Source: a virus. From it: a stretch of 64,000 bases of DNA. The stretch lies in the IMG/VR virus record IMGVR_UViG_3300035698_019747, positions 64,001-128,000 of that record, one strand, 5' to 3'. A program made the translations under genes and the position numbers. Within the stretch, counting starts at the first letter, position 1. The number at the start of each line of letters is the position of its first letter. Under the pieces are notes generated by a model. It worked only from the letters and a program-made list of their open reading frames with translations. It had not been told where the DNA came from and made no database searches. Shown one piece after another: positions 30,948 to 54,991 of the stretch.

Positions 30948-31373
30948 ATGGCTATAATTAAAAAAGTGAAAGATTTCTTTAAAAAAGATACACCTAAGGA
31001 TATGTCAAATAAACATATCACTAAAATGGATAACAATTCTGTAAATGATCAAGCAATGCCTGTTGAGAACTTCAGTGGGGTTTTAGAATATATCACTGCT
31101 GATATACATAGAATCATTAGGTTAACTTCTTACTTGAAAAATGAACTCACTGATATTTTTGGAAAACATAATGCAAGGTATAGAGGTGAATTTTTCTATT
31201 ACGTTTGGAATTTGGAATTTGATGGAGATACTTTTTGTATATTCACCGCAAATGGGAAAGGTACTACTTTTAATATTCACGCAAACCGTGAGGAAAATAA
31301 ATCAGAAAAATGTATAAACTTCCTACGTAAAATGGATGAATTATTAATAACAATAAATAAAGATGAAAAATAA
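30948..31373 (+). CDS. Hypothetical protein
   Basis: ORF. Confidence 0.7.
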   Translation: MAIIKKVKDFFKKDTPKDMSNKHITKMDNNSVNDQAMPVENFSGVLEYITADIHRIIRLTSYLKNELTDIFGKHNARYRGEFFYYVWNLEFDGDTFCIFTANGKGTTFNIHANREENKSEKCINFLRKMDELLITINKDEK

Positions 31374-31902
31374 TAAAAATACAAGCAGGTTTCTTAGCTT
31401 AGTGCTCAGACATAAACCAGAAGCTCTAGGAATCGTTTTAGATAGTAAGGGATATACTGATACCAAAATATTAATTGATGCTCTTAAAGAAGATGGTTTT
31501 GATATTGACATAGATATCTTAAAGGACATAGTTGAAACAAATGATAAACAACGTTTTAAATTTAATGAAGATTTTTCAAAGATAAGAGCAAGCCAAGGAC
31601 ATTCTGTCATTAAATTAGATTTTGTTAGAAAATTACCACCTGATATTTTATACCATGGGACAGCAAAAACTAATATGAAATCTATTATGAAATCTGGAAT
31701 ATCTAAACAGAGAAGACATCACGTACATTTATCTACCAATAAAGATACTGCACTTGATGTTGGTGGACGTTACGGTAGACCCATTGTATTAGAAATTGAT
31801 GCTAAAAAAATGAATGCAGATAATATTGAATTTTATTTATCTGATAATAACGTGTGGTTGACAGAGTATGTAGATAGTAAATATATTATAAATAATAAAT
31901 AA
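31363..31902 (+). CDS. kptA: RNA 2'-phosphotransferase (Tpt1/KptA)
   Basis: LSLVLRHKP, KQRF, IRASQGHS, LYHGT, RHHVHLS, NNVWLT. Confidence 0.95.
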   Translation: MKNNKNTSRFLSLVLRHKPEALGIVLDSKGYTDTKILIDALKEDGFDIDIDILKDIVETNDKQRFKFNEDFSKIRASQGHSVIKLDFVRKLPPDILYHGTAKTNMKSIMKSGISKQRRHHVHLSTNKDTALDVGGRYGRPIVLEIDAKKMNADNIEFYLSDNNVWLTEYVDSKYIINNK

Positions 31903-40563: not shown

Positions 40564-40629
40564 TTAATTAACTAAACTTTATCCAAAAATATTAATATAA
40601 GAGAGAGAGAAATTTTATATATATACGTT

Positions 40630-40698
40630 ATGAGAAAAATGATTTTAAATACTACATTATTAAGCATCAGCATTATTTTATTATTAATGGTGTATTGA
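40630..40698 (+). CDS. Leu/Ile attenuator leader peptide MRKMILNTTLLSISIILLLMVY
   Basis: 6 Leu codons, all TTA; 4 Ile codons, all ATT/ATC; directly upstream of tRNA-Leu(UAA) and tRNA-Ile(GAU). Confidence 0.85.
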   Translation: MRKMILNTTLLSISIILLLMVY

Positions 40699-40756
40699 GT
40701 CAGTATTGAAAAATTTTTCAACGCCCGACTCTTAATAAGTGTCGGGTTTATTTTTT
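40693..40756 (+). promoter_or_regulatory. Antiterminator/terminator switch of the Leu/Ile tRNA attenuator
   Basis: Terminator GCCCGAC(40723-29)/GTCGGGT(40741-47) plus TTATTTTTT; an alternative stem GAGTC(40697-701)/GACTC(40727-31) around TTGAAA/TTTCAA overlaps both the leader stop codon and the terminator 5' arm. Confidence 0.8.
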
Positions 40757-40762
40757 ATATAT

Positions 40763-40848
40763 GGTTGAGTGGTGGAATTGGTAGACACGAGGGGTTTAAA
40801 ACCCCTTGGTCAGAAATGATCGTGCGGGTTCGAGTCCCGCCTCGACTA
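40763..40848 (+). tRNA. tRNA-Leu(UAA)
   Basis: GTGGAATTGGTAGACAC D-arm, AGGGG-TTTAAAA-CCCCT anticodon arm, long V-arm, GGTTCGAGTCC. Confidence 0.95.
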
Positions 40849-40866
40849 CTAAAAATCACATATTTT

Positions 40867-40940
40867 AGTCTAGTAGCTCAGTTGGTTAGAGCGTTTCCCT
40901 GATAAGGAAAAGGTCGCAGGTTCAAGTCCTACCTAGACTA
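40867..40940 (+). tRNA. tRNA-Ile(GAU)
   Basis: AGCTCAGTTGGTTAGAGC, TTTCC-CTGATAA-GGAAA, GGTTCAAGTCC. Confidence 0.95.
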
Positions 40941-40959
40941 CTAATTAAATATAATTATT

Positions 40960-43003: not shown

Positions 43004-43081
43004 GGTGGGAGATTAGGCTATGTGGTAAGTAGCACAAGCCTTCTAAAAGCTTGGACAGGGGTTCGACTCCCCCTCTCACCA
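43004..43081 (+). tRNA. Atypical tRNA-like RNA; anticodon CUA (amber) or UCU in an expanded loop
   Basis: GGTGGGAG/CTCTCACC acceptor, GCTA/TAGC D-stem, CAAGC-CTTCTAAAA-GCTTG anticodon arm, GGGG-TTCGACT-CCCC T-arm. Confidence 0.7.
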
Positions 43082-43217: not shown

Positions 43218-43922
43218 ATGAAAGATGATTTAGGTAAAAGAATGAAAGAAAACTATGAAATAAGAACTCGTAGTTTTCTACCAAGAAGAACAAATGTCAT
43301 TATCCGTTTAGATGGTAAGGCATTTCACACTTATACAAAAGGATTGGATAAACCCTTTGACTATAAGTTAATGGATGATATGATGGAAACAACTAAATTT
43401 TTATGTGAAAACATACAAGGTTGTAAAATTGGATACACCCAAAGCGATGAAATATCTTTACTCTTAACAGATTATGATAACATCAAAACTTCATCTTGGT
43501 ATGATGGTCAAGTTCAGAAAATCACAAGCGTGTCAGCTAGTTTAGCTACCGCTAAATTTAACCAACTTAGACCAGAGAAATTAGCATTTTTCGATAGCAG
43601 AGTTTTCGTAATTCCTGATAAAGAAGAAGTCGTGAATTATTTTATTTGGAGACAACAAGATGCAACAAGAAATTCACTTTCTATGGCATCTCAGAGTGTT
43701 TATTCCGATAAACAGTTGTTCAAAAAGAATTCTTCTGATAAACAAGAAATGCTAATGGAAAAGGGTATTAACTGGAATGATTATCCAGTGAGTGCTAAAA
43801 GAGGTAGTAGCGTGATTAGAAAAACTTTTGATTACGAAGAAACCACAAGGAGTAAATGGGACTATACTGACATTCCTATCATAACCAAAGATAGGGATTT
43901 TATACTCGATTTACTGCCTTAA
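43218..43922 (+). CDS. thg1: tRNA-His guanylyltransferase Thg1-like protein
   Basis: IIRLDGKAFHTYT, YTQSDEISLL, QKITSVSAS, FDSR, YFIWRQQDATRNS. Confidence 0.95.
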   Translation: MKDDLGKRMKENYEIRTRSFLPRRTNVIIRLDGKAFHTYTKGLDKPFDYKLMDDMMETTKFLCENIQGCKIGYTQSDEISLLLTDYDNIKTSSWYDGQVQKITSVSASLATAKFNQLRPEKLAFFDSRVFVIPDKEEVVNYFIWRQQDATRNSLSMASQSVYSDKQLFKKNSSDKQEMLMEKGINWNDYPVSAKRGSSVIRKTFDYEETTRSKWDYTDIPIITKDRDFILDLLP

Positions 43923-51116: not shown

Positions 51117-51139
51117 AAATATATATTATTATTTATTTG

Positions 51140-51211
51140 CACGCATGGTGAGACTCGAACTCACATCAACGGTTTTGGAGACCGTTATCCTACCAATTGG
51201 ACGACACACAT
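51140..51211 (-). tRNA. tRNA-Trp(CCA)
   Basis: ACGGT-CTCCAAA-ACCGT, GTTCGAGTC; GU-rich acceptor stem. Confidence 0.9.
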
Positions 51212-51219
51212 ATTTCTTG

Positions 51220-51313
51220 TCTAGAGAACGGGATTTGAACCCGTGGAGCATACTATCTGTGTACACTCAGCCGTTTCCAAGACGACTTGCTTAAACCACT
51301 CGCACATCTCTAG
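51220..51313 (-). tRNA. tRNA with UGG anticodon (Pro) on a long-variable-arm body
   Basis: CTAGAGA/TCTCTAG-A, GAGTGGTTTAA D-loop, GTCGT-CTTGGAA-ACGGC, 8-bp V-arm GAGTGTAC/GTATGCTC, GGTTCAAATCC. Confidence 0.85.
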
Positions 51314-51317
51314 TTTG

Positions 51318-51390
51318 TCGGGAAGGTAGGAATCGAACCTACTAACTGATGCTTCCAATGCACCCGTGCTTAAACCTTAGTCACTTCCCG
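51318..51390 (-). tRNA. tRNA-Pro(UGG), A37, irregular D-arm
   Basis: CGGGAAG/CTTCCCG-A, GGTGC-ATTGGAA-GCATC, GGTTCGATTCC. Confidence 0.85.
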
Positions 51391-51398
51391 ATATTTTG

Positions 51399-51472
51399 TA
51401 TAGTAGGTGGGATTCGAACCCACGTGCTCCACATCCCAAATGTGGCGAGATAAACCTCTCCTCTACTACTAT
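51399..51472 (-). tRNA. tRNA-Pro(UGG), G37 but A1-U72
   Basis: ATAGTAG/CTACTAT-A, CCACA-TTTGGGA-TGTGG, GGTTCGAATCC. Confidence 0.88.
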
Positions 51473-51481
51473 ATGTATTTG

Positions 51482-51552
51482 TTGGGCTAACAGGACTCGA
51501 ACCTATAATCACTCCTTCAAAGGGAGCTGTTATGCCATTTAACTATAGCCCA
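51482..51552 (-). tRNA. tRNA-Gln(UUG)
   Basis: TGGGCTA/TAGCCCA, GCTCC-CTTTGAA-GGAGT, GGTTCGAGTCC. Confidence 0.93.
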
Positions 51553-51554
51553 AT

Positions 51555-51585
51555 AAAAAACCCACTCGGTTATGAGCGGGTTTTT
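51555..51585 (-). terminator. Second terminator of the Gln/Pro/Trp tRNA attenuator
   Basis: AAAAACCCGCTC-ATAACC-GAGTGGGTTTTTT on the minus strand. Confidence 0.85.
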
Positions 51586-51604
51586 CTGTTATATATTGTA
51601 TATA

Positions 51605-51637
51605 ACAGAAAAGTCCTCTCATAAATGAGAGGACTTT
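51605..51637 (-). terminator. First terminator of the Gln/Pro/Trp tRNA attenuator
   Basis: AAAGTCCTCTCAT/ATGAGAGGACTTT followed by TCTGTT. Confidence 0.75.
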
Positions 51638-52234: not shown

Positions 52235-54991
52235 TTATTTGTATATAACATACATATTATCTAAATCATCATCTTCGTAATTATACTCTATAAAATCATT
52301 GATACCTAATTGACCATAGTAATCTGAACCTATAATATATTCAGCTAACTCTTTTTCATATATATAATTAGTTAAAATGTTGGCTATTTCCACATCATCA
52401 AAACCCTGATCACTAAGATGATATTTTGAATCAGTAGTGGCACTTTCTATTTCCTCATTATATAACTCCTCTGCCTTTTCATCAATATCACTATCTGAGT
52501 ATTCCATATATTCAGAATCATCATCCTCTATTTTCTCTATTTCCTCATCAATCTCTTCAATATTATTTAGTATTTCAGATATATGTTCTTTATATTTAGT
52601 TACCTCAGAAGTTATATTATCTTCTAATTTTTTCAGAATAGTATTTAACCTATTCTTTCTATCTAAATCCTCACTATTTATTATAAGATTTTTTATTTTA
52701 TCTTTTTTTGAATTTAAATCCATATTAAGTGAAGCAATAGTATCTTTAAGTGATTCATTATTTTTAACAAAATCACTTCTTCTTATATTTAAATCCCCAC
52801 ACCTTTGCTCACCCTCTTCTGTTAGTGTTTTTTCTATATTATTATTACTTGGGTCTAATTTTATTTCTTCTACAAAATCCAATTCACTTCTCACATGTTC
52901 ATTAGCGAAACGTTCGCCATTAATACAATATTGAGGTATAAATTCTGGGAGGTGACCACTTTCTATTTGAGATAATACAGAATTCATAGCAGCCTCTTCT
53001 ATATCATCATATAAAATAACATTCCATGTTTTACCTGCTTCATCAACTTCTATATGTATTCTATAAAAAAGTTCAAACTCATAGTCATTTTCAACAACAT
53101 TTTTAAGTAATAAATACTTTCTATAATCACCACTTTCATAATCACCTTCATCTAATTCACCATTCTCATAGAGATACTTAAATAATGGTTTAGCATATTC
53201 ATCACCATTATACTTAGAATAATTATCATCACTATACTTATATTTTGATTGAACAACCCTATCTATTAGTTCCTGATAAGTCTTATTGGACATTGATCTT
53301 AATAAATGTGAAATAGTTTTATATTCAGATGGTATATCCTCAATTGAATTACCTGTTATAAACCCATTACCATCAATATTATGCATATAGAAATCATTAA
53401 AACCTGTTGATATTTTAATGTCTGATATTAAAAAAGGGTCAAAATAATCCCTAGAAGAGTCAAATATAATATAATAATAGAATTTGTTAATTTCTTGTGA
53501 ACCATTACTTGAAATAAAATATTCTGATAGATTATAAGTCTTGGTAGATATGTTTCTAAAAGCATCTACTCTTCTTGTATTATAATTAATTGGATCTTTA
53601 ATAATAAATTCAAATAGGTATATATCACCTACCTTACTAGAGGTTATATCTAAACCTTGTTGTTGTAGGTCTGAATTATATAATTCTTCAATTTCATTTT
53701 TTAAATCTACTTCTATTTTCATATATTTTTCAGTTATATCCTTAGCTTTTAATATATCCTTATTATTGACTATAATGTCTATAATATACTTATCAGGAAT
53801 AGTAGTATCAAAATTTGTCAAATTCTGATCAGAAAACTCATTATATGACACACCATTATATATATACATCTTTATTTTATATTGAAATCCTTTCTGATTT
53901 ACATTTTTGGAAAAATCATATATTATATAGAAATTATAATCACCCACTTCATCACCACCATAACTAAATGGGTTAACAGTATTGAATTTATGTATATTAA
54001 ACTGTTTTTCATTACTTACCCCTAAGCACATTATATCTGGATTATTAGAAACCTTTAATTGTTCCCCACTATCACCTTTTATTAACCCATTCTTAAACTC
54101 AAGTGTTGTCATACCAAAATTTAAGTCATCTAACATATTAATGACGTTATCTGGTAAATTATCAGATAAATTATCATCATTTTTATTATGTATATTAGTA
54201 ATCATACCCATATCATTTGTGGTAAAACCAACTAGGTGTAGGTTATCATATATTTCTAAGCTATAATCCCATATAAAAAATTGTCTTTTAAAACCACTTG
54301 TGTGATTATTGAATGAAGAATTACTTGTTACTATACACCATGATGAAGCACCTAATTTAACGGATGCATCATAGTCAGTTATCTCTGCTAATATGAGACC
54401 ATCATCAATGTTTTGATGCATAAGTTTAGCACCATCTAGTTCAGTTATATCCTTTATAGTTTTTGGATAAGACTTATCACTGTTCTTAGTGATAAAATCT
54501 TTGAGGTAATCTAATATACTACCCCTTGTTTTAAACTTTGATATTTTAACAGACAACTGTTTTAATAAACCCATTGAATGTAGTTCAATAGATATGTTTC
54601 TGAAATCATTATCCTTTATATCAATTAAATTCTTTTGTTCCCTAGGTAATATATTATAAACTTTTTTGATACGGTTGTTATTATCTATTGTATTTATTTC
54701 ATCCTTTAACAATTCAAAGCTATTATACTTTAATGGCTCTTTACTAAGTAATGAAGAATGTTCTTTTAACCATTTTAAGAGATCAACTATTTCGTCCATT
54801 GACACTTCCTGAGTAAACATATACTTAGTCATTAAACCTAAGTAATTAATATTTTTAAATATTTTAATGTTGTTTTTTTTCAACTCTACATAAGAAGGGT
54901 TGTTTATACTAATACCATCTTTTTTTAAAATAGCTAAGGCTTGTTGCTTATTTTCTAATATCTTTTTACTAAATTTTCTGATGAATTGCAT
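52235..54991 (-). CDS. Large protein with capsid-targeting-like N-terminus, G-x-x-x-WCI domain and C-terminal coiled coil
   Basis: MQFIRKFSKKILE; ASVKLGASSWCI...FNNH...QFFIWD...IHNKNDD, shared with ORF 61473-63209. Confidence 0.7.
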   Translation of the reverse strand: MQFIRKFSKKILENKQQALAILKKDGISINNPSYVELKKNNIKIFKNINYLGLMTKYMFTQEVSMDEIVDLLKWLKEHSSLLSKEPLKYNSFELLKDEINTIDNNNRIKKVYNILPREQKNLIDIKDNDFRNISIELHSMGLLKQLSVKISKFKTRGSILDYLKDFITKNSDKSYPKTIKDITELDGAKLMHQNIDDGLILAEITDYDASVKLGASSWCIVTSNSSFNNHTSGFKRQFFIWDYSLEIYDNLHLVGFTTNDMGMITNIHNKNDDNLSDNLPDNVINMLDDLNFGMTTLEFKNGLIKGDSGEQLKVSNNPDIMCLGVSNEKQFNIHKFNTVNPFSYGGDEVGDYNFYIIYDFSKNVNQKGFQYKIKMYIYNGVSYNEFSDQNLTNFDTTIPDKYIIDIIVNNKDILKAKDITEKYMKIEVDLKNEIEELYNSDLQQQGLDITSSKVGDIYLFEFIIKDPINYNTRRVDAFRNISTKTYNLSEYFISSNGSQEINKFYYYIIFDSSRDYFDPFLISDIKISTGFNDFYMHNIDGNGFITGNSIEDIPSEYKTISHLLRSMSNKTYQELIDRVVQSKYKYSDDNYSKYNGDEYAKPLFKYLYENGELDEGDYESGDYRKYLLLKNVVENDYEFELFYRIHIEVDEAGKTWNVILYDDIEEAAMNSVLSQIESGHLPEFIPQYCINGERFANEHVRSELDFVEEIKLDPSNNNIEKTLTEEGEQRCGDLNIRRSDFVKNNESLKDTIASLNMDLNSKKDKIKNLIINSEDLDRKNRLNTILKKLEDNITSEVTKYKEHISEILNNIEEIDEEIEKIEDDDSEYMEYSDSDIDEKAEELYNEEIESATTDSKYHLSDQGFDDVEIANILTNYIYEKELAEYIIGSDYYGQLGINDFIEYNYEDDDLDNMYVIYK

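Follow-up and report, generated by a model that had tools for sequence, protein, structure and literature searches.

We have found that a phage tRNA-Leu(UAA) gene and the tRNA-Ile(GAU) gene that follows it are preceded by a short open reading frame and an intrinsic terminator which, on the basis of sequence and folding models, very probably work as a ribosome-mediated transcription attenuator gating both tRNAs (Table 1). The anatomy of this unit, the match between the codons of the leader and the anticodons of the downstream tRNAs, the mutually exclusive folds predicted for the RNA and the conservation of the arrangement were established from sequence and computation. In silico we found a leader before the terminator, enriched control codons and exclusive folds, as in ribosome-mediated attenuators, with kinetic precedence being assumed. 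The proposed mechanism is that of classic attenuation with a new target, tRNA genes. The window, the whole 64,000-nucleotide stretch that was analysed, extends from base 64001 to base 128000 of a viral contig of 152,402 bases (G+C content of 28%, estimated completeness of 56%), which is a piece of an uncultured jumbo phage. The contig encodes baseplate proteins and a gp32-type ssDNA-binding protein, and its nearest GenBank relatives are uncultured phages of 635-735 kb (33-39% identity). The same genome also carries genes for tRNA repair or maturation enzymes, a Tpt1/KptA RNA 2'-phosphotransferase (31363-31902) and a Thg1-like protein (43218-43922).

Table 1. Features of the attenuator units (positions refer to the window unless another record is named)
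Feature	Position	Strand	Details
Candidate phage promoter motif TAAAC-N17-ATATA	40573..40599	+	precedes 12% of ORFs, against 1% for random positions
ATATATA-type box, candidate promoter or initiation element	40614..40625	+	4-5 nt before the leader ATG
Leader ORF, 22 codons	40630..40698	+	ATG 40630, TGA 40696-40698
Antiterminator	40697..40731	+	GAGUC 40697-701 / GACUC 40727-31 and GU 40703-4 / GC 40723-4; -10.7 kcal/mol
Intrinsic terminator	40723..40756	+	hairpin 40723-40747, U-tract to 40756, one A at 40750
tRNA-Leu(UAA)	40763..40849	+	tRNA search; no encoded CCA
tRNA-Ile(GAU)	40867..40941	+	tRNA search; no encoded CCA
Sister leader ORF of the Gln/Pro/Trp block, 27 codons	51659..51742	-	QQWQPQP run and a second Trp; p=8e-5
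Two tandem terminators of the Gln/Pro/Trp attenuator	51555..51637	-	51637-51609 and 51585-51555
tRNA block Gln(UUG), Pro(UGG), two atypical UGG tRNAs, Trp(CCA)	51139..51552	-	
Third attenuator: Ser/Arg leader, tRNA-Arg(ACG) and four tRNA-Ser	L001 831-1455 (G000 53831-54452)		outside the window
Three matched leader attenuators of the cultured Cellulophaga phage phi17:2	L306 7519-11117 = KC821609 87518-91116		

The leader contains six Leu codons, all of them TTA, and four Ile codons, three ATT and one ATC, while ATA and CTN are absent; this confirms the initial annotation, in which 10 of the 22 codons had been described as TTA or ATT/ATC with no other Leu codon and no ATA. These ten control codons are placed between codons 5 and 19. 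Leu and Ile represent 10 of the 21 residues against 17.8% in the genome background (p=0.0016), and none of 2000 dinucleotide shuffles of the sequence before the terminator gave an equivalent ORF at this distance from it. ATA, which had been noted as common in the surrounding genes, accounts for 52% of the Ile codons of the genome, and the caveat that TTA is the commonest Leu codon anyway was also justified, as it represents 59% of them. Because of these genome-wide shares, the synonymous choice made by this leader given its amino acids (0.59^6 x 0.48^4, about 0.002, or 0.005 counting TTG) is, at this single locus, suggestive only of tuning at the anticodon level.

The leader peptide is hydrophobic (Kyte-Doolittle 19-residue mean of 2.16) and 14% of the shuffles yield some ORF at this distance from the terminator, as could be the case if the ORF had arisen by chance or encoded a small membrane peptide, the terminator behind it were simply constitutive and the tRNAs were transcribed from another start. 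However, the sibling leaders are hydrophilic (-0.29 and -0.17) and the Leu homologue scores only 0.87, the U-tract ends 6 nt before tRNA-Leu and therefore leaves no space for a separate promoter, the content of the leaders follows that of the tRNA blocks in 17 genomes (see below), and control ORF-terminator pairs located before unrelated phage or bacterial tRNAs are mostly unmatched. We consider this explanation largely refuted and its probability very close to nil. The conserved membrane peptide with free codon choice that the initial annotation had raised as an objection falls with it, as the siblings are hydrophilic and their codons follow the downstream anticodons.

Upstream of the leader, the TAAAC-N17-ATATA motif is enriched 12-fold before ORFs, and an ATATA lies no more than 25 nt from the ATG in 42 of 57 leaders. 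A Shine-Dalgarno sequence is missing before the 40630 leader, and words resembling it were found before 0 of the 57. A TAnnTTTG motif precedes two leaders of this genome (at 51795-51785 in the case of the Gln/Pro/Trp unit) and is two-fold enriched upstream of ORFs. This motif is present before both sister units and absent before the 40630 unit, and therefore the timing of the latter may differ from that of its sisters. TAnnTTTG promoters and the lack of Shine-Dalgarno sequences are traits of Bacteroidota. Because of these two characters of the leaders, and because the system is shared with a Cellulophaga phage, the host of this phage is probably a member of the Bacteroidota. A scan for sigma-70 promoters and terminators gave nothing above chance, and it overlooked the terminator at 40723 because its U-run is interrupted.

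The terminator hairpin (-13.4 kcal/mol, z of -4.8 against shuffles) is formed by the arms GCCCGAC, at 40723, and GTCGGGT, at 40741, followed by a U-run broken by one A, and its U-tract starts 48 nt after the leader stop. The antiterminator stem GAGTC/GACTC, beginning inside the TGA, was found where the initial annotation had placed it, and encloses a further hairpin (40706-40721). The sequestration of the terminator 5' arm that had been attributed to this stem is partial: the loop-proximal GACUC together with G40723 and C40724 is held, but C40725-6 remain free.

To model the switch, transcripts ending before the terminator 3' arm were folded while a ribosome mask was moved codon by codon along the leader. 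The predicted probability of the antiterminator was about 0.99 as long as the A site lay within codons 4-19, codon 19 being the last TTA, decreased to 0.58 at codon 20 and was 0 at codons 21-23. For assumed footprints between 3 and 15 nt this boundary moved between codons 22 and 18, and the helix was always lost with the ribosome at the stop. In this way the logic originally proposed, OFF at the stop and ON when stalled in the Leu/Ile run, was reproduced at every footprint. When 3 nt of the 3' arm had been transcribed, the terminator paired only once the ribosome had reached codon 21 (0.92-0.96, against 0.00-0.03 at earlier positions), and with 5 nt, or with the full hairpin, it won under every mask. 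The initial annotation had counted terminator dominance regardless of ribosome position against an attenuator; such dominance does occur at equilibrium, but it was discarded as a refutation because the thr, leu and trp attenuators of E. coli behave alike. In fact, under the same folding the thrL, leuL and trpL arms were sequestered with values of 0.74-1.0 in the stalled state and 0 at the stop, and their terminators reached 1.0 at equilibrium. As the terminator is favoured at equilibrium, the phage switch must act kinetically.

The antiterminator of the 40630 unit is short (5+2 bp), with a duplex z of -1.1, and occupies rank 4 of 57. A protector or pause (1:2) hairpin is typical of trp-type attenuators, although it is not universal. 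It is absent from this unit (0.58 for the naked leader vs 0.63 for the stalled one), and therefore read-through is predicted when the leader is not translated, while such a helix is present in both sister units (0.07 and 0.26) and in 18 of 57 units overall.

The arrangement is not limited to the Leu/Ile genes, as each of the three multi-tRNA blocks of this genome is preceded by a leader that matches its tRNAs, with a terminator 43-48 nt past the leader stop. The Ser/Arg leader (L001 831-908) has a seven-codon run of Ser and Arg in which both Arg codons are the rare CGT and CGC (p=9e-4). In the Gln/Pro/Trp unit, the freed 3' arm of the first terminator can pair on into the 5' arm of the second (a segment of -20.5 kcal/mol), and a possible reading of this modelled pairing is that the tandem terminators act as a relay. 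A lone tRNA-like gene with a CUA anticodon and an imperfect acceptor stem (43007-43080, + strand), located just upstream of the Thg1-like gene, has no leader. As 9 of the 106 long ORFs end in TAG, the genome does not appear to be recoded. Atypical tRNAs are also found in the attenuated blocks, at 51219-51313 and 51318-51390 (- strand) of the window and at 73357-73445, 162434-162521, 162784-162869 and 163140-163224 of the nearest relative, G001. They combine long-variable-arm bodies (Ser/Leu/Tyr-like) with UGG, UUU, GUU, UGU or UAC anticodons and lie beside normal tRNAs with the same anticodon; they are possibly decoys or alternatively charged tRNAs.

Related phages were located through the ssDNA-binding protein and their tRNA regions were examined. 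Units were called blind to their content, as an ORF of 12-45 codons whose stop lies 40-70 nt upstream of a U-run that follows a hairpin of -10 kcal/mol or lower, with one Leu unit admitted at -7.3 kcal/mol. According to this, there are 58 units in 14 related phage genomes, including the one described here. When tRNA sets were permuted within genomes, the observed match score of 199 was reached in 0 of 20,000 permutations (mean of 27, maximum of 102), and the true pairing of leaders and blocks was ranked first in 11 of 12 genomes. In the published huge phage LR745206, which was used as a hold-out, seven units were found and the true pairing ranked 1 of 5040; LR756501, another published huge phage, has two units. 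Altogether, leader content tracks the tRNA blocks across 17 genomes. In G001 (56% identity), which lacks an Ile tRNA, the Leu-only unit contains seven TTA codons and no ATT or ATC, and its layout is kept with a different 10-bp antiterminator helix just after the stop. This Leu-only unit was the only close homologue of the Leu/Ile unit recovered by pattern scans for Leu-type units, and no viral contig matched the exact leader-start motif of the 40630 unit. Lone tRNA-Met(CAU) genes of the related phages, unlike the multi-tRNA blocks, consistently have neither leader nor terminator.

The three units of phi17:2, whose leaders begin at KC821609 positions 87518, 88478 (a GTG) and 90037, provide an example in a cultured phage. 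Among the first 15 residues of its leaders, 11, 13 and 12 match their own blocks, against 0-5 for the other blocks. The middle leader corresponds to the annotated gp077, whose likely start is a GTG at L306 8479 with a TAnnTTTG motif upstream. Beyond this group, such units are mostly absent from the tRNA clusters of unrelated phages. Bacteroides phage DAC19 has no unit, and none was seen in Tenacibaculum phage Gundel_1, in which a hairpin precedes the Trp/Phe block and only a short upstream stretch was examined. Bacterial tRNA genes were examined in a biased sample of 75 sites located behind a U-run. A terminator was found at 29 of them, seven of which also had an ORF; among the seven there was one clear match, for His, and one more was a phage-like contig. 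The His unit (L197 2936-4600, from the bacterial MAG contig CAYRYE010000002.1) comprises a leader in which His is encoded three times, an antiterminator of 12 bp, a terminator, tRNA-His(GUG) and hisS, the latter above the TIGR00442 cut-off, and from its sequence it is an apparent cellular example of a leader before a tRNA gene.

Across the set, the leader 3' end paired with the 5' arm of its own terminator at a mean of -9.3 kcal/mol; the corresponding values were -6.1 over all swapped pairs and -7.6 for shuffles within families (0 of 20,000). The switch was predicted in 56 of 57 native units versus 88 of 120 swapped constructs under a lenient rule. Furthermore, the share of matched codons is 48% ahead of the predicted switch point and falls to 21% beyond it. 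These data bear on the idea that leader and tRNAs are coupled by another route, such as termination by Rho, an effect on how the precursor is processed or how stable it is, or an antitermination factor of the phage, the hairpin being mainly a processing or stability signal. At the 40630 locus the interrupted U-tract, the weak antiterminator and the end of the hairpin just 6 nt before the tRNA 5' end are favourable to it. However, most units have a perfect hairpin and a long U-run, placed at a constant distance of 46-66 nt from the stop, a spacing like that of thrL, leuL and trpL (45-63 nt), and each leader 3' end shows co-variation with the terminator arm of its own unit; we thus regard this alternative as very unlikely.

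The initial annotation had also proposed that the sensor is tuned to the isoacceptor and not just to the amino acid, a claim that is weak at the 40630 locus alone and is supported across the 58 units. The ratio of ATA to ATY codons in the leaders is 3/24 before blocks with only Ile(GAU) and 12/5 before blocks with only Ile(UAU) (p=1.6e-4), that of Arg CGN to AGR is 15/4 with ACG and 1/14 with UCU (p=3e-5), and that of Leu TTR to CTN is 16/1 with only UAA/CAA and 19/29 when CTN readers are present (p=1e-4). As the leaders group into about seven homologous families, these Fisher p-values overstate independence. The same contrasts are observed inside single genomes: in five genomes with both Ile types the ATA/ATY ratio is 0/9 (GAU) vs 12/5 (UAU), in four the CGN/AGR ratio is 7/3 vs 1/7, and in phi17:2 CGT precedes Arg(ACG) and AGA precedes Arg(UCU). 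The local codon backgrounds are 36-60% for ATA, 9-20% for CGN (with one outlier of 56%) and 62-80% for TTR. All these sequence comparisons make it likely that the leader codons are tuned at the anticodon level.

A plain Leu/Ile starvation attenuator, its synonymous codons reflecting AT bias or sensitivity in selective charging instead of the downstream anticodons, would agree with the share of TTA already present in the genome and with the stalling that starvation too would cause. Moreover, control codons of known attenuators are biased to starvation-sensitive isoacceptors through selective charging (PMC1183508). However, a general rule of sensitivity favours one codon per amino acid and therefore does not explain one per downstream block: within one genome ATA vs ATT, and CGC vs AGA, differ by leader according to the anticodon that follows. 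RS-family leaders keep the rare CGC and CGT even where CGN is 9-20% of Arg codons, as in most genomes, and amino-acid starvation would not be cured by more tRNA. For these reasons we find starvation sensing unlikely, though less so than the other alternatives, and prefer tuning to the anticodon. Among the matched control codons of the 58 units there is a preference for G-ending codons read by wobble, which are rare in these genomes (GCG is 73% of Ala, CCG 41% of Pro and GTG 53% of Val, with 25% for TCG and 28% for ACG), which suggests that the leaders may choose the codons most sensitive to the loss of U34 tRNAs or of their modification.

The phage unit resembles the enterobacterial thrL (Thr/Ile), ilvL (Ile/Leu/Val), leuL, trpL and hisL attenuators, which also have a short leader with control codons and a competing antiterminator, and in thrL, leuL and trpL the position of the intrinsic terminator past the stop and the masked folding are also as described here. 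In contrast to them, it controls non-coding tRNA genes and not biosynthetic enzymes or a synthetase, its codon set matches the anticodons supplied downstream, it has no Shine-Dalgarno sequence and, unlike the trp type, the 40630 unit has no protector helix. The pheM-pheST attenuator controls phenylalanyl-tRNA synthetase and thus also acts on translation machinery that raises charged tRNA, but its output is a synthetase and not a tRNA, and it is cellular, single and without anticodon matching. T-box riboswitches sense the state of a specific tRNA via a codon and also switch between terminator and antiterminator, although they bind the tRNA directly without translation. We rejected a T-box identity for the 40630 unit, as no Rfam T-box matched it at the gathering threshold or at E<=5 and its codons lie in an open reading frame. 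In phage T5, tRNA-Tyr counters retron-Eco7 (PMC11555353), and phage tRNAs have been hypothesised to serve as counter-defence (PMC10264068). In both T5 and our case phage-encoded tRNAs would substitute for limiting host tRNAs; however, the T5 case was ascribed to a strong promoter with attenuation unmentioned (PMC11555353), while the supply described here appears conditional and codon-resolved. A literature search covering mainly openly available papers found no description of attenuators on tRNA genes.

Taken together, we infer that the leader is translated, that termination is regulated and that the unit responds to a signal in vivo. RNA polymerase would start just upstream and a ribosome would translate the 22-codon leader. 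When the decoding of UUA and AUU/AUC is fast, the ribosome would arrive at the stop and cover GAGUC, the terminator would fold and transcription would end 6 nt before the tRNAs. If the matching charged tRNAs are scarce, the ribosome would be delayed at codons 5-19, GAGUC and GACUC would pair before the terminator 3' arm exists, and the tRNAs would be transcribed. As the product is the tRNA itself, this would constitute a negative feedback loop on the decoding capacity for specific codons, with one sensor per tRNA block forming a genome-wide set. Candidate signals in vivo are the cleavage of host tRNAs, the exhaustion of tRNA through phage translation, and starvation. Because extra tRNA would help only when tRNA, and not the amino acid, is limiting, the selected signal is probably that host tRNA is lost or exhausted in the course of infection, one candidate cause being its cleavage by a defence nuclease (PMC11555353, PMC10264068). 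A more tentative proposal, to which we give slightly less than an even chance, is that the units form a distributed, anticodon-resolved surveillance in which block-specific probes detect the loss of a particular host tRNA, for example through cleavage by an anti-phage nuclease, and transcribe only its replacement, functioning as an inducible counter-defence.

Why phages carry tRNAs has been an open question for more than 50 years (PMC10264068). A survey of huge phages reported up to 67 tRNAs per genome with leaders and attenuation unmentioned (PMC7162821), and LR745206, which belongs to the size class of that survey, carries seven units. The system was not expected and is widespread, and since the cultured phi17:2 has three units, the codon-compensation, starvation and anti-nuclease hypotheses can be separated at the bench. 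If these attenuators work as proposed, classical attenuation would reach beyond enzymes to tRNA genes and beyond cells to viruses, phage tRNAs would be an on-demand supply triggered by the slow decoding of particular codons, and the leaders would represent a genome-encoded list of the codons that each phage monitors.
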